A DNA stretch of 64,000 nt, from NCBI GenBank assembly GCA_048939245.1, contig JBHLPR010000004.1, positions 15,976 to 79,975 of the forward strand. Reading direction: 5' to 3'. This document shows positions 1,977-12,116 of this stretch, piece by piece. Origin of the DNA: Promethearchaeota archaeon. Its GTDB lineage: Archaea > Asgardarchaeota > Hermodarchaeia > Hermodarchaeales > Hermodarchaeaceae. Every line of letters starts with the position of its first letter. Position 1 is the first letter of the stretch. A program made the translations under genes and the position numbers. The notes below the pieces were generated by a model, which made no database searches, had not been told where the DNA came from, and was given only the letters and a program-made list of their open reading frames with translations.

Positions 1977-3365
1977 ATGTCCAAAGAAGCCTTTGACAAA
2001 CTAGAGAACCGAATCCTCTCACGTTTAGATCCACAGGATCGACGCGATGTGCGGAGCTTACTCCGGAATGTTACACTCTTTATTAGACGAATTGAGAGGA
2101 CACACCTTAGTGAAGGAGAAAAGAACTACCCGAGTCATCCACTTTTCTCTCACAGAGACCAAAAAGGAGGGCAAAATACAGCAGAAACCTTGCGTTATCG
2201 TTTACAATTTGTTGACCGATTTCACATTGATAAGAAGCAATACATCATCGATGTGTTGACCCAAAACGTACCCATGGGAGGTAAAAAACAATTATCAACC
2301 CGTAAAGCGCAAATCCTTTGGCAATTATTTCAAGATCCAATCATACCAAAATACCAAATTGCGAAGAAAATAGGTACGACACCTCGCACAGTTTCGAAGG
2401 ATTTAACGGAACTGGAACAGGATTATGCACTGCGCGTTTTCACGAATATTGATCCACATAAATTCCATTTAACCATGCGCATCATAATGTTTGAGACTTA
2501 CTCCTTTAATCATACTAAGAAGTTGGAAAAATTTGTATCAAACCATCGTGGGTTTCTACTATACTTTCGACTCGATCAAGACATGCGTCAAGGAACTGTC
2601 ACTTTTCGTTATCCAGACCAGCCAAATGGGCATCAAATGTTTGAGAAACGATATAGCTGGCTTAATGATGAATTCTTCAAAGAATCTTATCAGATTCAAG
2701 CCCTCGGACTATACCAATCGATTTCTTTCGAGATGTATAACCCAACAATACATGCATTCTCAATCGAACCAGAAATAGTGTCACAAGTTCCCTTTGATTA
2801 CAGTAGGCAGTCCATAGATACTCTTCCGCAACCTCGTGGATTTGACTTCACCGAGTCTTTTGATTTTGATCAAGCAGATTTTCTGTTATCAGGAATCTTG
2901 TATTCATCTGGACCTCTTACACACCCGGAGTACAAACAAAATTTGTTAGCCCGATTTGGAATTAATTACTCGATGAAAACAATCTGGAAAAAACAGCAAC
3001 GTTTACGAAAGGAGAAAGCGGGGTATCCGATGATTGAATTACAAATTCCGGGCTTCGATGAAGATATGATGCTAGTTGTATTCTGCACACCTAAAGCTAC
3101 TTCAGCGATTCGTGCCATCTCTGCTTTTCTTCCATCAGTGATGTTCATCAATACCAATTCTGGCTGCCTATTGCGGATTCAACGCCCTGTTCACACATCT
3201 GCTCTCACAGGTCAACTGATTCGGAAAATCCATAATCAACAAGGAGTAACTGATGTCAAACTACTTCGCTACAAACAAAGATTACAAACACCATTATTAC
3301 CTGCGATTGTCAATCGATGGAATGCAGCAGAACAAGAATGGCAGCTTGAAGAAGGAGACATTTAG
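1977..3365 (+). CDS. Uncharacterised protein with unknown N-terminal domain and duplicated Lrp/AsnC-like wHTH modules (paralog 1)
   Basis: HTH KYQIAKKIGTTPRTVSKDLTELE. Second module begins FDQADFLL. Aligns by eye with 3384..4817 and 8509..9945. Confidence 0.7.
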   Translation: MSKEAFDKLENRILSRLDPQDRRDVRSLLRNVTLFIRRIERTHLSEGEKNYPSHPLFSHRDQKGGQNTAETLRYRLQFVDRFHIDKKQYIIDVLTQNVPMGGKKQLSTRKAQILWQLFQDPIIPKYQIAKKIGTTPRTVSKDLTELEQDYALRVFTNIDPHKFHLTMRIIMFETYSFNHTKKLEKFVSNHRGFLLYFRLDQDMRQGTVTFRYPDQPNGHQMFEKRYSWLNDEFFKESYQIQALGLYQSISFEMYNPTIHAFSIEPEIVSQVPFDYSRQSIDTLPQPRGFDFTESFDFDQADFLLSGILYSSGPLTHPEYKQNLLARFGINYSMKTIWKKQQRLRKEKAGYPMIELQIPGFDEDMMLVVFCTPKATSAIRAISAFLPSVMFINTNSGCLLRIQRPVHTSALTGQLIRKIHNQQGVTDVKLLRYKQRLQTPLLPAIVNRWNAAEQEWQLEEGDI

Positions 3366-3383
3366 TCCACAAGGAGAGACAAT

Positions 3384-4817
3384 ATGATGACACTAAAACG
3401 AATTCAAACTGTAGGAACAAGAAACTCGCCTTCCATCGACTCAGATTTCATTGAAAATATAATATCGCGTTCTGAACCAGTAGAGGACCGAGATGATCTC
3501 CGCCAATTTCTCACAAATGTTCGTCTCTTCATTAAACGGGTGGATGGATTTGATTTAACCGAAGAAGAAAAAGAATATCCTGCGCATCCCCAGTTCAGCC
3601 ACCTTACATTTAGAAAAGGAAAGAATACAGCTGAAGGTCTTAAAGCCCGATTGAGAACTATCGATCGGTATCAGATTACGAACGTTCAGCAAATAATAAA
3701 CATCATTGCGTCAACAGCCGTCTCAAGTCAAATGGAAAGCCTTACACTTCGACAGATTCGTCTTATTGAAGAATTGCATAAAAAGCCTTTAGCAGCTCAA
3801 TATGAACTCGCTGAGAGACTTTTCACTACATCGCAGGTAATTCGACAGGAGTTGACACAGCTCCGTCAAAATTTCTCTTTGGCCGTTCTCTATGATTTTG
3901 ACTGTCACAAATTTCGACTAAATTCTTATGAGATAGATTTTCGCACTAAATCGCTTGATGCGTCTCAAGAATTGGAAACATATTTTCGGAGAACCCAGCC
4001 CACCTTTTTACAGCGCCTTAATTTTGACCATAATTATCGTGATGGATTCTTCTATTATTTCATACCAGATCAACCATCAGGGCAAAGAATGTTTGCAGAA
4101 CGAGTAGAATGGTTGAATTCCAATTTTCTTGAAGATTTATCGATATTTCAGGTCCACAGTTTTCAAATTGACATCTCATTCGAAAATTATAATCATTTGA
4201 CTGGAACATGGATGCTCAACGCAGATACCTTCTCAGCCGGAATGCTCCAGTTCTTATCACACCAAGAGCGAAGCCAGCTTCCGCCCCGTGGAATGATATT
4301 TGGTGACTTTAATCGTTTTGATAGGATTGATTTCATCATTGTGTCCACAGCATATGTCTTTGGGAAAAAGCGATATACGGATATTTGTCAGAAAGTGTTA
4401 GAACGGCACGGCTACTCATTATCTAGAAAAACAATATGGAATCGACTGAAGAAACTGTACCAGATGGGCACGATTTATCCATTGCTTTGGTATGATATTC
4501 CTGACTTTGAAGAGTTGGTCAAGTTTAGTATTATTTGTACTCCAGAGGCAATAGAACCGATTTACCGGCTCATTTCAATACTTCCGTACACCTACTCTTT
4601 AAGAACAGATGTAGGCATAACGTTCACGTTTCAAAGACCCAGTCGTTGTACTTCAATCACCGGATTATTAGTGGAGACATTTGATCAGATTGAAGGCGTT
4701 TCCAACATCAAGATAATCCGTTATGAACCCACCTTTAGCCCACAATTGTCTACCAAAACGGCAGACCGATGGGATGAAAGCCGCCAACGTTGGTTACCCC
4801 AGAAAGGCGACATCTAA
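3384..4817 (+). CDS. Uncharacterised duplicated-wHTH protein (paralog 2)
   Basis: HTH QYELAERLFTTSQVIRQELTQL. Second module FDRIDFII...SRKTIWNRLKKL. Ends GDI like paralog 1. AGGAG RBS upstream. Confidence 0.7.
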   Translation: MMTLKRIQTVGTRNSPSIDSDFIENIISRSEPVEDRDDLRQFLTNVRLFIKRVDGFDLTEEEKEYPAHPQFSHLTFRKGKNTAEGLKARLRTIDRYQITNVQQIINIIASTAVSSQMESLTLRQIRLIEELHKKPLAAQYELAERLFTTSQVIRQELTQLRQNFSLAVLYDFDCHKFRLNSYEIDFRTKSLDASQELETYFRRTQPTFLQRLNFDHNYRDGFFYYFIPDQPSGQRMFAERVEWLNSNFLEDLSIFQVHSFQIDISFENYNHLTGTWMLNADTFSAGMLQFLSHQERSQLPPRGMIFGDFNRFDRIDFIIVSTAYVFGKKRYTDICQKVLERHGYSLSRKTIWNRLKKLYQMGTIYPLLWYDIPDFEELVKFSIICTPEAIEPIYRLISILPYTYSLRTDVGITFTFQRPSRCTSITGLLVETFDQIEGVSNIKIIRYEPTFSPQLSTKTADRWDESRQRWLPQKGDI

Positions 4818-4826
4818 TTGAAGAGC

Positions 4827-5726
4827 TCATTTTGATTTGGAGTGGATTATTTTGAAAAAGTGGTCGACTAATTCATTAGCCACATTGATATCAGTGACTT
4901 GCTGCAACCCTTGCCATCCACTGCTGCTGTTAACTTCTGTAACAACTAATCCTTGTTCTGTTTCTAAGATGTCAACACCTGTATATTCAAGTCCAATTGT
5001 TTTTGCGCATTTTACTGCTAGATTGGCTAATTCGGATGTAAGAGGGTAAGGATGTGGTTCTGCCCCTTGTCTGATTGTAGTTTTCCAAGTATCTCCGATC
5101 CGAGTCATAGCAGCGATAGCTCTGTTTCCAATTACAAAGACCCGGATATCGCGATTTCCATGTTCGAGATATTCTTGAATATACATAACGTAGCGACTTG
5201 CCTCCAGTGAACGAAATACACGCCTGGCAATCTCATGGTCACTGACTCGAGTCATGCCCACTCCACCTGACCCGAACAGAGGTTTCACCACGACATCTTT
5301 GTAACGTCGAAAAGCGCGAAGACCATCTCGGGTATATTGTGTCACTGTTGTCCGTGGGACAGGTATTCCAGCTAATTCTAATAGCCTTAGAGTATAGTAT
5401 TTGTCTACTGCTTTTTCAACGGCCTGAGGACGATTCATAAAAGGAATACCAAGTCGCTCAAGGCAGTGAAGAGTATCCATTCGTAAAATAACCTGTTCCA
5501 ATGAGCCACCAGGAACTGCACGCGTAAATACTCCTTCCAAAGTGGTCAAATCTTCTTTTTTGAATTGAACACGCGGTCGTTTACCACCTACGCGGACAAC
5601 TGTTTCTATAATGTTGAAAACGACACAGTCGGTATCTCGGCGCTCAATTTCATCCACAACCCGACTTGTCTCCCAGCCCTCCGGTTCAGCTGAAGCGACT
5701 CCAACTCGTTTGATTTTTTTCGCCAT
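4827..5726 (-). CDS. RimK-family ATP-grasp alpha-L-glutamate ligase (MptN/Orf5-like tetrahydromethanopterin glutamate ligase, or CofF)
   Basis: VVKPLFGSGGVG, YIQEY, DIRVFV, GVDIL, EVNSS. GGSLEQVILRMD..LE.LG resembles the H4MPT-linked subfamily. Immediately downstream of cofE. Confidence 0.8.
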   Translation of the reverse strand: MAKKIKRVGVASAEPEGWETSRVVDEIERRDTDCVVFNIIETVVRVGGKRPRVQFKKEDLTTLEGVFTRAVPGGSLEQVILRMDTLHCLERLGIPFMNRPQAVEKAVDKYYTLRLLELAGIPVPRTTVTQYTRDGLRAFRRYKDVVVKPLFGSGGVGMTRVSDHEIARRVFRSLEASRYVMYIQEYLEHGNRDIRVFVIGNRAIAAMTRIGDTWKTTIRQGAEPHPYPLTSELANLAVKCAKTIGLEYTGVDILETEQGLVVTEVNSSSGWQGLQQVTDINVANELVDHFFKIIHSKSK

Positions 5727-6656: not shown

Positions 6657-7274
6657 GTGAAGCATATGGGCGATAAAATCATCAAATATCATGTCCAAAA
6701 AGACCAGTTGGTCCGAGTTCCCTCAGATTACCTGAGTGAGTTCGCTACGGGCGATGTGTACCTGGTTGACACGGGAAGTGTCATTTATTCATGGATTGGA
6801 AAAAAAGCCACTCCAGATGAACGTTTCATCGGAGCTATCACATCCGTATGGAAAGACCAAGATAGGAAGGGAGCAGCAAAGTTAGTCACGATTAGCGAAG
6901 GTAAGGAACCCAAAGAATTCTTGAAACTCTTCAAAGACAAAATCACGATTACAGAACAAGACACCGAAGGAATTCTAAAACGTGTAGCCCTCAAACACCA
7001 CGAATTCAAGCTGTTTCGTGTCCATATCGAAGACGATTTGAATTTGTATTATGAAGTCGACTGCTCGAAAGAATCCCTCGCGTCGGATGATGTCTTCCTT
7101 TTAGATACCTATAATGAAATCTATATCTGGCGTGGTCAAAAATCCACAGCATTTGAACGATGGGAAGCGATGAACATCGCCGAAGGTTACGATGCACAAC
7201 GCACAAGTCGTCAAGAAATCATTATTGTCGAAGAAGGCGAAGAGCCAGAAGACTTCTTAGAAATTCTCGATTAA
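6657..7274 (+). CDS. Two-domain gelsolin-like protein (Asgard eukaryotic signature protein)
   Basis: Two repeats: DVYLVDTG.VIYSWIGKKA...EGKEPKEFL and DVFLLDTY.EIYIWRGQKS...EGEEPEDFL. Start is GTG 6657 or ATG 6666. Confidence 0.88.
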   Translation: MKHMGDKIIKYHVQKDQLVRVPSDYLSEFATGDVYLVDTGSVIYSWIGKKATPDERFIGAITSVWKDQDRKGAAKLVTISEGKEPKEFLKLFKDKITITEQDTEGILKRVALKHHEFKLFRVHIEDDLNLYYEVDCSKESLASDDVFLLDTYNEIYIWRGQKSTAFERWEAMNIAEGYDAQRTSRQEIIIVEEGEEPEDFLEILD

Positions 7275-7417
7275 TTTCTCAGAAACAACAATGGTGTGGA
7301 GGTAACCAAGAAAGGGGAAGAAACCCTATCTTTTAGTAATAATACAGTAGGCCCCAGAGCCCTTCTTGGTCAATTTCCCACTGGTCATTTTCGCTTTTTC
7401 CCGACGCAGCCCATGTA

Positions 7418-7479
7418 AACCAGTCGAACTCTGCCCCAGTGCAGGCGAGAGACACTGGGACAGAGCACTGTGACTGGTT
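7418..7479 (-). other. Strong RNA hairpin at the 3' end of the small-gene pair
   Basis: AACCAGTC(7418-25)/GACTGGTT(7472-79) outer stem. 13-bp inner stem 7429-41/7453-65, fully paired (one G-U) only on the minus strand. Confidence 0.7.
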
Positions 7480-7825
7480 AAGTGGCTTCATCGAGGACTA
7501 AGCTAACAAATTTACCCAATCGACCCGTGTGTTGAATAGCCTTGATCAGTCGGGCCTCGTGCGTCGACTTCTTGACAAGAAGATGATTCTCTCGGACGAC
7601 AGCGAGTTCCGTGAGAAGGTCATAGAGTCGACGTAGTTCAACTCGATCGACTTGCTCAGAAAGGCGTTCCAGGAGGCGGAACACATCGGTCATTTCAACC
7701 TTCTCGAGCTGGTCAAGTTGCTCCGTGACATTATGCGACCGCAAATAGGATCGGGCTAGTCGTAAAATTGGGTCGCTTGCGTTTTCTGTCCCTGTGGTCA
7801 CGGCAATTCCCCTCAGAGTCGCCAT
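7478..7825 (-). CDS. Small helical hypothetical protein (115 aa)
   Basis: ATG at 7825 lies 1 nt after the stop of the upstream ORF (TAA-C-ATG), preceded by GGGGGTG. Confidence 0.7.
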   Translation of the reverse strand: MATLRGIAVTTGTENASDPILRLARSYLRSHNVTEQLDQLEKVEMTDVFRLLERLSEQVDRVELRRLYDLLTELAVVRENHLLVKKSTHEARLIKAIQHTGRLGKFVSLVLDEAT

Positions 7826-7826
7826 G

Positions 7827-8090
7827 TTACGCACCCCCGATGCTGGCGACGTTAGAGATTTCTTGACCATTGGGCTCAACGCGTACGCGAACTCCGCTGG
7901 GAGTCGCTTCAACGATGACCCGACCATTAAGGCCGCAGGTATCCTTGACTAATTCTAATAGCAAGGTACCAATTGCTCCGATTTCTCGGAGGTCTTCACA
8001 TCCCGTCTTCGGGGTAATACAGAGATCAATTGGGTAGGCGTCCGTGACGCCAATCATTCGCTGGGTTTCTTCCATCAGTTCTGTAGCCAC
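7827..8090 (-). CDS. Small hypothetical protein (87 aa)
   Basis: GTG start after AGGTGGAG. Spacing suggests translational coupling to 7478..7825. Confidence 0.6.
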   Translation of the reverse strand: MATELMEETQRMIGVTDAYPIDLCITPKTGCEDLREIGAIGTLLLELVKDTCGLNGRVIVEATPSGVRVRVEPNGQEISNVASIGGA

Positions 8091-8161
8091 TTTTTTCTCC
8101 ACCTTTCTAAACACAACTAGGAAAAATAAGAACGTGAACACAATGCCGTAGTGATATTCGT

Positions 8162-8429
8162 ACTGAGCAAGCCAACTCAGTTTATCCGTTCTTTAGAACG
8201 GCCAAACATCAGATGTCCACGGACCCATTGTGCGTTTTTCACATCCGGTAATTTTTCCCTTGCGAGTGTGTTTGCTGGAATCTATTACAAACAATGGATA
8301 CTAGCCTTTAAGTATCCGTTCAGAGAGCGGTGAACGGAGCTGACAAAAAAGCCGATTCATCGAAAAAAACCATCCAGAGCTTAGAATAGACTTTAAACAC
8401 GTTAATGGTGATGCATTCCTGTAACAGGA
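8162..8429. promoter_or_regulatory. Palindrome-rich divergent control region
   Basis: ACTGAG-N8-CTCAGT (8162-81), CCGTTCT-TT-AGAACGG (8186-8201), ACATC-A-GATGT (8206-16), GGATACT-N8-AGTATCC (8296-8317), TCCGTTCA-N8-TGAACGGA (8315-38), TCCTGT-A-ACAGGA (8417-29). Confidence 0.6.
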
Positions 8430-8508
8430 TTTTGAGTCATCTTCTATAATTTCAACTTTTCGTCAAAAGGAAACTTTTTATGCCTGTTTCTTTCTTTCTG
8501 ACGATGGT

Positions 8509-9945
8509 GTGGCGCGCGTGCAATCGGTGGTTGAAGTAGCAGATTTACTCTCATCATTGAAGCACAATATTCATGAAAATATGCGCCCAAGCGAAGAACT
8601 ATTCGAAATAGATCTTTTACTCGATAATCTGAAACTTTATGCAAAACGAGTGAAAGGTGTACCACTTAACGAAGAAGATCACAGGCTCCAACCGTACAAA
8701 GAATTCGATGGCATGGTTGTGACACCTCGCGAACGAACGTATAATTCGTTGTTGCGACGACTTAAGGTCATCCTTCGATTCAACATCACTTCTTATGAGA
8801 AGGTTACCCGGGATCTATTACGGGGATTAATCTCTGAAGAAGCCGATCGGATAACTGGAAGAGAAATCCGGTTAATGACGTTGCTGTATCAACGCCCCAA
8901 CACGCCGCAGGCACAAATGGTAAAAGAGTTGAATGTCAGTCTGCCTACGATACGAAAGGACATCAAGACCTTAGAAGAGAAAATTGGTTTAAGGTTTGCC
9001 AATATGGTTGACTGGGGACGGTTTAAATTACGGCATTACGGGATTTTCTTCATTACCTCAGGTGTTGAAGCATCGAAGAATCTCGCAAAGGTCCTAAATG
9101 AAGAGATGTCCACTTATTTGAGAAGAGTGAATTTTGATACAACATTTCAGAGGGGCTTTGCCGGTTTTCTGATCCCGGATCAAGGAAAACCCACACAACT
9201 CTTTTCAGAGCAAATTAAATTGTTAAGCGAAAAGTTCTTCGAAGAGCACCAGCTCCACCAAATTAAGAAATACAACCAATCGATTTGCTTTGATCATTTT
9301 GACTATGAAACCAGCACATGGATGATTGAAGGTGATGTTTCAACTCTCGGCCTTCTTAATTTTGTACGGGAAAACTGGGCGATTCTTCCAAAGCCACGAG
9401 GGTTATCCAATACTCTAGCACGTCCTTTCGATGACCTTGATTATTATCTTGCCTGTTTATTAGGTGGGGATAGTAATGCACCAATGAAGAAAATTTTAAG
9501 CAGATTAGAAGCAGTGGGAATCAAAGCACCTCGAACAACTGTATCTACACGAAAGAACCGTCTCCACAAAGAAAGGACATTGGAACCCTTTTTCACTTTT
9601 GGGACGCCACAACTCCCCTTTTTCATTACTTTTGCAATTAGATGCGAGCCACATATTGCAGAGCAGCTGGCTGTGGCTGTTGCACAAATGCCACAGGGTT
9701 TCGTGTCAATTTCGAATATGGGTTGTGTTATTAATGTGTATGTGCCCGCAAGGAGCCTCGGAACTATTCTAAATCTTCTTTCACTAACACTTGAGGAGGA
9801 GGGAGTTCATGAGGTGTGGCAGATGCAACAGTATCGCAATATGGGATCTTATGGACCTGCACGAATTGCTCATAAGTGGAATGGGTCATATTGGACCTGG
9901 TCTGAGGATGAATTCGCTCTTCCATCTTTGGGACTCGAGTTCTAA
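8509..9945 (+). CDS. Uncharacterised duplicated-wHTH protein (paralog 3)
   Basis: HTH QAQMVKELNVSLPTIRKDIKTLE. Second module FDDLDYYL...PRTTVSTRKNRL. Shares IPDQ, PKPRG and C-terminal W..W motifs with paralogs 1 and 2. Confidence 0.7.
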   Translation: MARVQSVVEVADLLSSLKHNIHENMRPSEELFEIDLLLDNLKLYAKRVKGVPLNEEDHRLQPYKEFDGMVVTPRERTYNSLLRRLKVILRFNITSYEKVTRDLLRGLISEEADRITGREIRLMTLLYQRPNTPQAQMVKELNVSLPTIRKDIKTLEEKIGLRFANMVDWGRFKLRHYGIFFITSGVEASKNLAKVLNEEMSTYLRRVNFDTTFQRGFAGFLIPDQGKPTQLFSEQIKLLSEKFFEEHQLHQIKKYNQSICFDHFDYETSTWMIEGDVSTLGLLNFVRENWAILPKPRGLSNTLARPFDDLDYYLACLLGGDSNAPMKKILSRLEAVGIKAPRTTVSTRKNRLHKERTLEPFFTFGTPQLPFFITFAIRCEPHIAEQLAVAVAQMPQGFVSISNMGCVINVYVPARSLGTILNLLSLTLEEEGVHEVWQMQQYRNMGSYGPARIAHKWNGSYWTWSEDEFALPSLGLEF

Positions 9946-10006: not shown

Positions 10007-11047
10007 GTGGTGCAGCGTATTAGTAGTAAATTGATAGTTCGAGAAGGCGATTTCATTGAAACCATTGAAGGGCTTATTTTTGATGTCAAGGGACTCGTGC
10101 ATCCACCGGATAGAGTTATCGCATTCTTGCGATATTATCCCTCGCCGAATGGGAAGCGAGAAAGAGATGGGCAACGTTATGATAAGGTCTATCATCTAAC
10201 TGAACGCTTCGATTATCTGCGAGAACATTATCCACACTATCTATACCATGACAAAGTATTTGGAACAGAATTGCAGAACATACCTCATTCTTTCATACGG
10301 GAAATCTTTCATCCGAAGGAACAGCTTCTTCGACTGAGAGAGCTTGAGCAACGAGACGCATTGCAGCAAGATGTGGTTACCTTTGCTGATATTATTGAGG
10401 AGAAGGCACGGGTTTCAGCTGACGCCTTGGGGATTTCTGGTAGTGTCCAAGTAAATCTTCATGGAGAGACCTCAGATATTGATTTGATCGTGTATGGTCG
10501 TCGAGAAGCACGAGCAGTACAGCTGGCATTACGCCGGGCTCATTTGATACCCGAAGAAGGAATTTCGGGGTATCGATTGGACACATACCGAACCGTCTAC
10601 AACTTACGGTGGTCAGGGACCGGTATCCCCATCGAAAAGATGCTGTTAGTTGATGGGTTGAAGTCCATGCATGGAGTATTTGGGGGGCACCACTACTTCA
10701 TTCGAGCAATACTGGATTGGGATGAGATTCAAGAGGAATATGGGGATTGCATATACGAACCGATTGGACAGGCTCGAGCCCAATGCACGATTTCTGATGA
10801 TCGTGATGGTCTATTTACTCCATGCCGTTATGAAATTGATGATGTAGTATTTTTGAAAGGAAAGAAAATTCAAGATCTGCGCGAGATAGTCAGTTTTCGG
10901 GGACGATTTGCTGAACAGGTCCGCCAAGACGAAACTGTCGTGGTGCAGGGCATGGTAGAAATAGTCAAATGTGGGAAAGAAAAGTGGGGTCGGTTCTTGT
11001 TAGGTGCTCAACCAACAGATATCTTATTACCCCGTAATGTCATTTGA
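10007..11047 (+). CDS. Archaeal Pol-beta-superfamily nucleotidyltransferase (COG1665-like)
   Basis: GISGS...SDIDLIVYG catalytic motif. N-terminal DFIET.EGL.F.V.G..HPP. Confidence 0.8.
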   Translation: MVQRISSKLIVREGDFIETIEGLIFDVKGLVHPPDRVIAFLRYYPSPNGKRERDGQRYDKVYHLTERFDYLREHYPHYLYHDKVFGTELQNIPHSFIREIFHPKEQLLRLRELEQRDALQQDVVTFADIIEEKARVSADALGISGSVQVNLHGETSDIDLIVYGRREARAVQLALRRAHLIPEEGISGYRLDTYRTVYNLRWSGTGIPIEKMLLVDGLKSMHGVFGGHHYFIRAILDWDEIQEEYGDCIYEPIGQARAQCTISDDRDGLFTPCRYEIDDVVFLKGKKIQDLREIVSFRGRFAEQVRQDETVVVQGMVEIVKCGKEKWGRFLLGAQPTDILLPRNVI

Positions 11048-11069
11048 TTAATATGCTGGTGGTTTAGGG

Positions 11070-12116
11070 GTGGCACGGCTTCCAAAAGACAAAGACTTTA
11101 TCGAAACCAAAGAGGGATTATTTTTTACTGTTGTGGGATATTTGCATCCCCCAAATGCATATACTGCATACTTGAAGTACCGTCCGGATTCAAAGGGCAA
11201 ATGGGAACGGGGAGGTGTTCGGTACCAGCGGATGATGCAAGTGTATAGTGCTGCTGAAGTGCAATCCAGCAGTAGTTGGTTACTGAAACATTTTCCTGAA
11301 TACATCAAACTTGATCCAGTACGAGGGATTAAACTGCCATTGGTTCCTTGGGAGAATACTGTTGCTTATTATTTACCTGAGGTACGAATGGCTGAGATAC
11401 TCCGCGATCCGCAAGATCCGCTGGAATCAAAGGCGAAGGCGTTGGTTACTCTGCTATCCGAAGCCAGTGGAGTTGACTTGAGCAGGTTTGGTGTTTCCGG
11501 ATCGATTCTTTTAGAAATTCATAATCCAATGTTTTCCGATATTGATTTGCTCGTGTATGGATTAGAGAATGTGCAACGTGTTCGGGATGTGATGGACGAG
11601 TTATTTGGAGAGAATAAGGTCAAGCCCTACTCAGGGGAAGAGGTTCAATCATGGCAATTGCGGCAGGTAAGGATACTGGGAGTTCCTGCTCGCTACGCAG
11701 AACAAATTGCGTGGTCACATTGGCAACGTGGACGATTTGGAAAAACAGCTTTTTCGATAGGTGCAGTTCGAATGGATGGGGAAATCATGAACCAATATGG
11801 AGCTGAAACCTATTCGCCGGTAGAAGCTGTTGAATTCACAGCCACGATTATTGAGGATGAGGAAAACCTCTTTGTGCCAGCCCGATATTTAGTGGGTGAT
11901 ATCAACATGGAGGAGGGTTATACAGAATTACCTGCGTTAACGGAAGTAATTTCATTTGAAGGAGTGTTTGCAGCAGTTTTCAACAAAGGTGACCGGGTTA
12001 GGATCCGTGGAATGGTGGAGGCGGTTCGTGACGAGAAGGAGAATATCCTTCGAAACCATGTGATTGTTGGCACCTTGTCTTCGCAGGGTTGGATTGTGCG
12101 GCTTACTTCGGCATAA
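11070..12116 (+). CDS. Archaeal Pol-beta-superfamily nucleotidyltransferase (COG1665-like), tandem paralog
   Basis: GVSGS...SDIDLLVYG and DFIETKEGLFFTVVGYLHPP. Confidence 0.8.
   Translation: MARLPKDKDFIETKEGLFFTVVGYLHPPNAYTAYLKYRPDSKGKWERGGVRYQRMMQVYSAAEVQSSSSWLLKHFPEYIKLDPVRGIKLPLVPWENTVAYYLPEVRMAEILRDPQDPLESKAKALVTLLSEASGVDLSRFGVSGSILLEIHNPMFSDIDLLVYGLENVQRVRDVMDELFGENKVKPYSGEEVQSWQLRQVRILGVPARYAEQIAWSHWQRGRFGKTAFSIGAVRMDGEIMNQYGAETYSPVEAVEFTATIIEDEENLFVPARYLVGDINMEEGYTELPALTEVISFEGVFAAVFNKGDRVRIRGMVEAVRDEKENILRNHVIVGTLSSQGWIVRLTSA

Follow-up and report, generated by a model that had tools for sequence, protein, structure and literature searches.

A predicted three-cistron operon, headed by a conserved micro-ORF, faces a winged-helix regulator gene in an Asgard archaeal family

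Introduction

What do two small, tightly linked genes do beside a large gene for a winged-helix-turn-helix (wHTH) regulator? The question arises from a 64,000-nucleotide (nt) stretch of DNA, here called the window, from Promethearchaeota archaeon (GCA_048939245.1, contig JBHLPR010000004.1, positions 15,976 to 79,975 of the forward strand). Its minus strand encodes proteins of 87 and 115 amino acids (aa), next to the gene for one of three large wHTH proteins (paralogs 1 to 3 of a family termed wHTH-480 here). An initial annotation described the pair as GC-rich, translationally coupled orphans and suggested that the N-terminal domain of the large regulators has a free-standing copy in the 115-aa protein; the pair would form a regulatory module with these regulators. 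Our analysis indicates that the two genes, together with a very short open reading frame (ORF) upstream of them, the micro-ORF, constitute a three-cistron operon with conserved translation signals, placed head to head with paralog 3. The elements of this arrangement are as follows.

7478–7825, minus strand: 115-aa gene, ATG start, last gene of the operon, product predicted to be all-helical
7827–8090, minus strand: 87-aa gene, GTG start, middle gene of the operon, product predicted to be alpha/beta
7832–7838, minus strand: Shine-Dalgarno (SD)-like GGGGGTG for the 115-aa gene, within the last codons of the 87-aa gene, present in 11 of 11 same-genus orthologs
8097–8103, minus strand: SD sequence GGTGGAG for the 87-aa gene, 6 nt upstream of its GTG, invariant in 12 loci
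8193–8228, minus strand: micro-ORF, 11 codons plus stop, proline-rich, unannotated, upstream of the 87-aa gene
8509–9945, plus strand: wHTH-480 regulator paralog 3 (Pfam HTH_11 at 7.9e-6), divergent partner of the operon

Results

Two small coding genes

The two minus-strand ORFs lie where the initial annotation had placed them, with the same translations and the junction TAA-C-ATG between them, and they diverge from the 478-aa paralog 3 as it had described. Longer versions of both ORFs (104 and 149 aa) were considered and rejected. We take the short starts to be real because conserved ribosome-binding sites precede them and because most database relatives are 87 and 115 aa long; genes at this locus should be called accordingly. 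Among same-genus orthologs, the junction keeps the form of a stop codon, 1–2 nt and then ATG. Relative to 11 such orthologs, differences at codon positions 1, 2 and 3 number 96, 60 and 277 for the 87-aa gene and 164, 44 and 357 for the 115-aa gene. This excess at the third position indicates that both ORFs are translated genes under purifying selection. These data identify the pair as genuine protein-coding genes that are translationally coupled.

The pair is also GC-richer than its surroundings (0.515 versus 0.442 for the genome), falling in the top 2% of 600-nt windows. GC content at the third codon position (GC3) is 0.51, compared to 0.33–0.44 in neighbouring genes, and the excess resides mainly at third and first codon positions. 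It is confined to the window's genus and is absent at the more distant orthologous loci L031, L043 and L044. As a trait of one genus only, the excess is no pointer to recent transfer; these comparisons indicate a property of the lineage and not a mark of transfer.

A micro-ORF with a conserved peptide

The operon is separated from paralog 3 by a spacer of 418 base pairs (bp), which is conserved in blocks within the genus. The micro-ORF in this spacer, missed by gene calls, is preceded by the SD-like sequence GGATGTGA at 8239–8246 (minus strand). Its region, which lies between two blocks that are invariant or nearly so in the genus, is barely alignable as DNA, yet an ATG-initiated ORF of 10–14 codons is found at every locus of the genus, preceded by SD-like GGA(T/A)GTGA. 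Going by the database names of close relatives, the window's genome belongs to a Thorarchaeota-like Asgard family (f1; the Thor lineage), and a positional counterpart of 10–14 codons is present at all 18 Thor-lineage loci read, including those of a second genus. Counterparts also lie upstream of relatives of the 87-aa gene in the Asgard families f4, f5 and f30, giving an overall range of 9–14 codons; at two loci of family f3 the micro-ORF is absent. Families f1, f4 and f5 show the divergent regulator as well, while in f30 the contig ends first.

Most of the encoded peptides have a proline at position 3 and a penultimate proline, and all except the window's and that of one close relative end in D/N/E-P-aromatic-or-acidic-P-x before the stop codon, most of them in the stricter form [DNE]-P-[FWY]-P-x-stop. 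The window's own peptide departs from this motif, having a single proline near its end, and is the exception among seven independent lineages, the other six of which carry a motif ORF. Shuffled spacers contain such an ORF in 0.1–0.75% of trials per locus, figures that are optimistic because the motif was defined post hoc. As is characteristic of leader peptides, the peptide is conserved while the DNA diverges, and it is encoded directly upstream of the genes. In f4, f5 and f30, the micro-ORF ends ∼10–35 nt upstream of the next gene, like an ordinary first cistron. A genome-wide scan for micro-ORFs ending in the motif returned eight matches versus ∼4 expected, none of them before a related gene, and within the window's genome the micro-ORF is unique to the present locus.

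The version found in f5 (genomes G007 and G006; loci L046, 2682–3061 on the minus strand, and L050) is longer, with 40 codons and the same conserved nonapeptide ending. Its 40-aa product has a basic N-terminus followed by a hydrophobic stretch of ∼23 residues, resembling a signal peptide or membrane anchor.

Several further elements of the leader and spacer are conserved.

8097–8126, minus strand: near-invariant block before the 87-aa start, with a T-run plus CC(C/T) and TGTGTTT, defined by alignment
8163–8180, minus strand: inverted repeat CTGAG-N8-CTCAG in the leader, present in 11 of 12 aligned loci
8253–8282, minus strand: 30-nt block invariant in the genus, containing GGGAAAAA and AAACACA
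8456–8476, unstranded: candidate operator/promoter element TTTCC-N7-GAAA, inverted-repeat-like, 30–60 nt before the start of paralog 3

The 30-nt block lies ∼23 nt downstream of a TATA-like TTAAAGG (8305–8311) and, judged by this spacing only, is probably the 5′ end of the operon transcript. It could pair with the block preceding the SD sequence, or either of the two could pair with the SD sequence itself; no covariation is seen for pairing between the blocks, because both are invariant. RNAalifold folds the T-run and CC(C/T) of the pre-start block onto the SD region in a hairpin that shows no covariation and that may mask the SD sequence. The TTTCC-N7-GAAA element is kept in every Thor-lineage locus checked, including those of the second genus, and comparable inverted repeats are found at the same place in f4 and f5 loci. 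A search of Rfam with positions 7200–8700 gave no match.

Distribution of the two genes

For distribution, we used a phylum sample of 18 genomes of f1 (two genera) and 381 other Asgard genomes. The pair turned out not to be orphan: there are 28 relatives of the 115-aa protein (identity 50–97% in the database search) and 34–59 of the 87-aa protein, and the two genes are adjacent wherever the context was read. Within the sample, the 115-aa gene is present in 18/18 f1 genomes and 0/381 others; 17 of these f1 genomes also gave a match to the 87-aa gene. Against 1.84 billion representative proteins, the 115-aa profile finds only nine members and no convincing fused form. One candidate fusion, P0073 (211 aa), was rejected, as its similarity to the 115-aa family is limited to the last 49 residues. 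The remainder of P0073 is low-complexity and signal-peptide-like, and the record is probably a chimeric metagenome assembly.

The pair occupies the same chromosomal position in every sampled f1 genome. On one flank are a pyrophosphatase, a molybdopterin-binding protein, two nucleotidyltransferase-like paralogs and wHTH paralog 3, the ortholog of which is divergent from the pair in every locus read; on the other are a convergent two-domain gelsolin gene, CofE and a RimK-like ligase. Within the genus, identity is 85–87% for the pair versus 86% for the H+-pyrophosphatase. In the second genus, it falls to 40–50% for the pair and 49–53% for paralog 3.

Relatives of the 87-aa gene face wHTH-480 genes in other families

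A wider 87-aa family came into view after a Baldrarchaeia-like sequence and one other had been added to the profile, with members detected in Asgard families f3, f4, f5 and f30. In four families (f1, f3, f4 and f5), these genes lie 280–420 bp from a divergent wHTH-480 gene. The distance is 283 bp in G005 (Baldrarchaeia-like by the database name of an identical protein; a weak match), 380 bp in G007 (f5), and 321 and 328 bp in G002 and G004 (f3). In G310 the contig ends and no regulator is visible. The genes flanking this head-to-head arrangement of regulator and small alpha/beta gene differ among the four families. In a tree of the regulators, rooted by midpoint only, the copies that adjoin a small gene make up two clades, that of paralog 3 and a separate outgroup. 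Paralogs 1 and 2 cluster with two copies on another contig, as lineage-specific duplicates would.

The third cistron is not shared. Its slot in f4 and f5 is filled by a gene for a protein of ∼95 aa, coupled through an ATGA overlap in the f4 locus, which is unrelated to the 115-aa family (hhalign probability 0.06%) and has no match in the window's genome. The older core is the regulator facing an 87-aa-type protein, and the 115-aa gene is a family-specific addition that stands in place of the ∼95-aa gene that f4 and f5 carry.

A paralog of the 115-aa protein follows an ArsR-type regulator gene

Searched against the window's own genome, the 115-aa profile finds the protein itself and one small paralog on another contig, of 122 aa (E = 6e-12; hhalign 96.6%).

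L001, 413–781, plus strand (contig C45 of the window's genome, G000; L020–L029 in sister genomes): 122-aa paralog, identified by profile match

In the sister genomes, the 122-aa gene lies immediately behind, or shares a few bases with, a 220-aa gene for a wHTH protein of ArsR type (Pfam HTH_5 at 2e-7), which is flanked by an ABC transporter (ABC ATPase and MacB/FtsX permease) and a radical-SAM gene. In the window's genome, the break between contigs C35 and C45 interrupts the ArsR-type gene. The paralog is restricted to the window's genus. The 115/122-aa type is therefore encoded twice right behind a partner gene, and one such partner is a transcription factor.

No sequence likeness beyond chance between the 115-aa protein and the regulators' N-terminal domain

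The initial annotation rested its domain proposal on short residue strings quoted from the 115-aa protein, paralog 1 and paralog 2, and each string is present as quoted. If the protein were a stand-alone N-terminal domain of ∼110 aa, it might act as an anti-repressor that competes for an interaction surface. The two regions do have helices and an abundance of Leu, Arg and Glu in common, and the pairwise score against paralog 2 has a P value of 0.034. However, Smith–Waterman scores against the three paralogs are only 35–43, compared to shuffle means of 28–31 (P = 0.03–0.11), and the paralogs align to the 115-aa protein in three differing registers. Comparison by hhalign with a wHTH-480 profile built from 11 aligned members gave a probability of 1.5% over 23 columns, the same stretch that had been picked out by eye. 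With a hidden Markov model built from the first 125 alignment columns of the paralogs, the 115-aa family reaches only 0–6 bits, and the genome-wide profile search described above matched none of the five large paralogs. With chance-level scores, inconsistent registers and no genome-wide match to a large paralog, the proposal is unsupported at the level of sequence.

Co-occurrence argues in the same direction. The wHTH-480 family gives strong, full-length matches below 1e-30 in f2, f3, f4, f5, f30 and f31, and is thus widespread in Asgard families that lack the 115-aa gene, which is limited to f1. These data leave the 115-aa protein as no detectable copy of the domain; we consider the anti-repressor idea very improbable, and the protein should not be labelled a regulator domain.

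Predicted structures and family searches

The AlphaFold2 model of the 87-aa protein has a mean predicted local distance difference test score (pLDDT) of 78, with a core above 90, and shows a strand-helix-strand-strand arrangement; the ends are disordered in the model yet highly conserved. The model of the 115-aa protein consists of five helices at low confidence (pLDDT 64). Neither protein has a match in Pfam, NCBIfam or PADLOC, and nothing usable came from PDB sequence profiles, Foldseek or a wide VIA search. PDB profile searches with the 115-aa, 87-aa and widened families and with the ∼95-aa partner returned nothing below E = 0.017; matches to a histidine-kinase ATP-binding domain (E = 0.3–0.4) and an Mlc-type wHTH (E = 0.16–0.4) were judged to be noise. 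A resemblance of the 87-aa family to the ArsR-type protein, likewise noticed by eye, was rejected too, as it comes down to a helix-hairpin pattern with an hhalign probability of 0.2–0.6%. Complex prediction for the 87-aa and 115-aa proteins, both entered as alignments, gave an interface score (ipSAE) of 0.02, which, from a run without controls, is evidence neither way.

Two specific folds were considered for the 87-aa protein. Its C-terminal Gly-Gly-Ala recalls a ubiquitin-like/SAMP modifier, but the di-glycine is not conserved, being absent from P0094, P0095 and all non-Thor relatives; the Gly codons at the end of the gene double as the SD sequence of the 115-aa gene. No beta-grasp protein is found among the Foldseek or VIA matches of the 87-aa model. 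Roadblock/LC7, brought to mind by strand-helix-strand in the longer f3 relatives, had no Pfam match at E = 10 with six relatives, and no Roadblock structures appeared in the PDB profile search or fold searches. Elsewhere in the window's genome (contig C26, ∼3100–5560), four ORFs of ∼100–155 aa show a Roadblock-like residue pattern by eye and surround an ORF of ∼195 aa with a P-loop GTPase-like motif at its N-terminus.

Discussion

What, then, could the operon be doing? The account we favour, though only tentatively and with slightly less than even confidence, is that a conserved, micro-ORF-led operon faces paralog 3 and that its small proteins are partners of wHTH transcription factors. The 87-aa and 115-aa proteins would be accessory or adaptor proteins without enzymatic activity, the 115/122-aa type would have as its binding partner the protein encoded immediately upstream, and the micro-ORF would control or feed the circuit, either as a ribosome-pausing leader or as the source of a peptide ligand. 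Paralog 3, for its part, may regulate the operon through the shared intergenic region. The regulatory module envisaged in the initial annotation gains support in one respect, from the 87-aa relatives facing wHTH-480 genes and the ArsR-linked paralog of the 115-aa protein, and loses it in another, since the sharing of an N-terminal domain finds no profile similarity behind it.

Several observations weigh against this account. A divergent placement fits a regulated target as well as it fits a partner. The cross-family matches of the 87-aa protein are weak (E 1e-8 to 2e-3) and credible mainly through position, and a second 87-aa relative in G005 (contig C12) has no regulator adjacent to it. Inside f1, where synteny extends over the entire 15-kb block, adjacency counts for little. 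Profile comparisons show no similarity of either small protein to the ArsR-type protein or to any part of the regulator, and the lack of a family, fold or solved-structure match leaves no biochemical handle on either.

The first of these points leads to an alternative in which the pair is simply cargo regulated by paralog 3, with a non-regulatory job such as a stress, structural or cytoskeleton-associated role. Regulator and target is the commonest reading of such a geometry, the pair is conserved within the genus to the same extent as its housekeeping neighbour, the H+-pyrophosphatase, and its high GC3 may reflect high expression. A cytoskeletal role might be suggested by the two-domain gelsolin gene that adjoins the pair in all Thor-lineage loci; however, that gene is convergent and not co-transcribed, and no gelsolin gene adjoins the 87-aa relatives at the loci read from f3, f4 and f5. 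In addition, the 115-aa paralog sits behind another transcription factor, and the swapping of the third cistron between lineages suits an adaptor better than a fixed structural role. We regard the cargo explanation as somewhat unlikely, if worth keeping in mind. An arrangement of type II toxin–antitoxin kind, with the smaller upstream protein neutralizing the larger downstream one, would account for the coupling of two small genes and their order, smaller before larger, for their atypical composition, and for an HTH protein upstream in the paralogous pair, as many antitoxins have. Against it, no toxin, antitoxin or defence model was matched in Pfam, NCBIfam or PADLOC; the 115-aa gene is at the same site in 18/18 f1 genomes, with one 87-aa gene per genome; divergence is vertical, in step with the neighbours, with no sign of mobility; and the GC excess is specific to the lineage rather than to the locus. 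Type II systems resemble the present pair in gene order and coupling, but the pair is strictly vertical, fixed in site, universal in its family and without a family match, and its third cistron has been exchanged between lineages while the first two were kept. We find this explanation hard to credit.

The micro-ORF gives rise to two other proposals. In one, a peptide of 9–14 residues ending in D/N-P-aromatic-P-x governs, throughout the Asgard archaea, small proteins that modulate a double-wHTH regulator. The proline-rich peptide would serve as a ribosome-pausing sensor or as a ligand, and the small alpha/beta protein with its lineage-specific partner (here the 115-aa protein) would modulate the facing regulator. 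In this general form, we think the proposal unlikely to be right. In the other, the locus is a peptide-signalling cassette in which the micro-ORF peptide acts as a signal received by the wHTH protein, and the small proteins help in producing, protecting or presenting that peptide. At least three families do have a short peptide gene that diverges from a gene for a large HTH protein, and in f5 the motif is carried on the 40-aa product whose N-terminus resembles a signal peptide or membrane helix. Yet most versions of the peptide are without an export signal, the motif is shared across classes, unlike pheromones, which tend to diversify, no exporter, protease or oligopeptide importer is encoded at the loci read, and no TPR-type peptide-binding domain was detected in the regulator. 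We judge signalling of this type to be quite improbable.

Each of these readings has a counterpart among known systems. In the Rgg/SHP and RRNPPA cassettes of Firmicutes, as in PlcR/PapR, a short peptide gene stands head to head with a large HTH regulator, and the export-like N-terminus of the f5 peptide adds to the likeness. The present regulator, however, has a double wHTH and no detected TPR domain, the motif is conserved across classes with no transporter or protease nearby, and the operon holds two further small proteins.

Proline beside the stop codon and D-P or P-D-P strings are typical ribosome-pausing contexts. In leader and arrest peptides such as TnaC, PepNL and the PPW motif of AZIN1, which take effect at the stop codon or close to it, a very short ORF likewise lies just upstream of the regulated genes, its amino-acid rather than nucleotide sequence is conserved, and a proline stands beside the stop. 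PepNL is a short arrest peptide of E. coli that blocks termination at its own stop codon (PMC11890864), and PPW is a polyamine- and eIF5A-dependent pause motif in the upstream conserved coding region of AZIN1 (PMC8705083). The present case differs in that stalling is a role proposed from sequence, in that the f4, f5 and f30 micro-ORFs are placed like ordinary first cistrons, and in that the downstream genes give no metabolite clue. A full-text literature search on archaea and arrest or leader peptides found no comparable archaeal example.

The stand-alone effector-domain ('demi' feast/famine) proteins of the Lrp/AsnC family are small alpha/beta proteins thought to join wHTH regulators in mixed oligomers. 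Like the 87-aa protein, they are encoded beside wHTH regulators. The 87-aa family differs in having no profile similarity to any part of wHTH-480 and in its predicted strand-helix-strand-strand arrangement, which is not the full beta-alpha-beta-beta-alpha-beta.

Should the micro-ORF prove to be a pausing leader or to encode a ligand, a mode of control known from bacteria and eukaryotes would extend to archaea. The Asgard-wide circuit, if real, would be the first archaeal case in which a leader peptide or peptide ligand controls transcription factors. The cassette itself, parts of which are common to at least five Asgard families, is compact and testable: beside the regulator, it comprises a micropeptide gene and two small proteins that belong to no known family.

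Neighbouring genes

In the second genus (loci L031, L032 and L033), the stretch from the RimK-like to the MobA-like gene holds a varying number of copies of paralogs 1 and 2: a single full one, a remnant of 55 residues, or none at all. All three loci retain paralog 3 and the small operon. On the plus strand at 10007–12116, two tandem genes encode proteins of ∼347 aa that are ∼30% identical to each other and that follow paralog 3 in every Thor-lineage locus. One of the two has a weak match to a nucleotidyltransferase domain.
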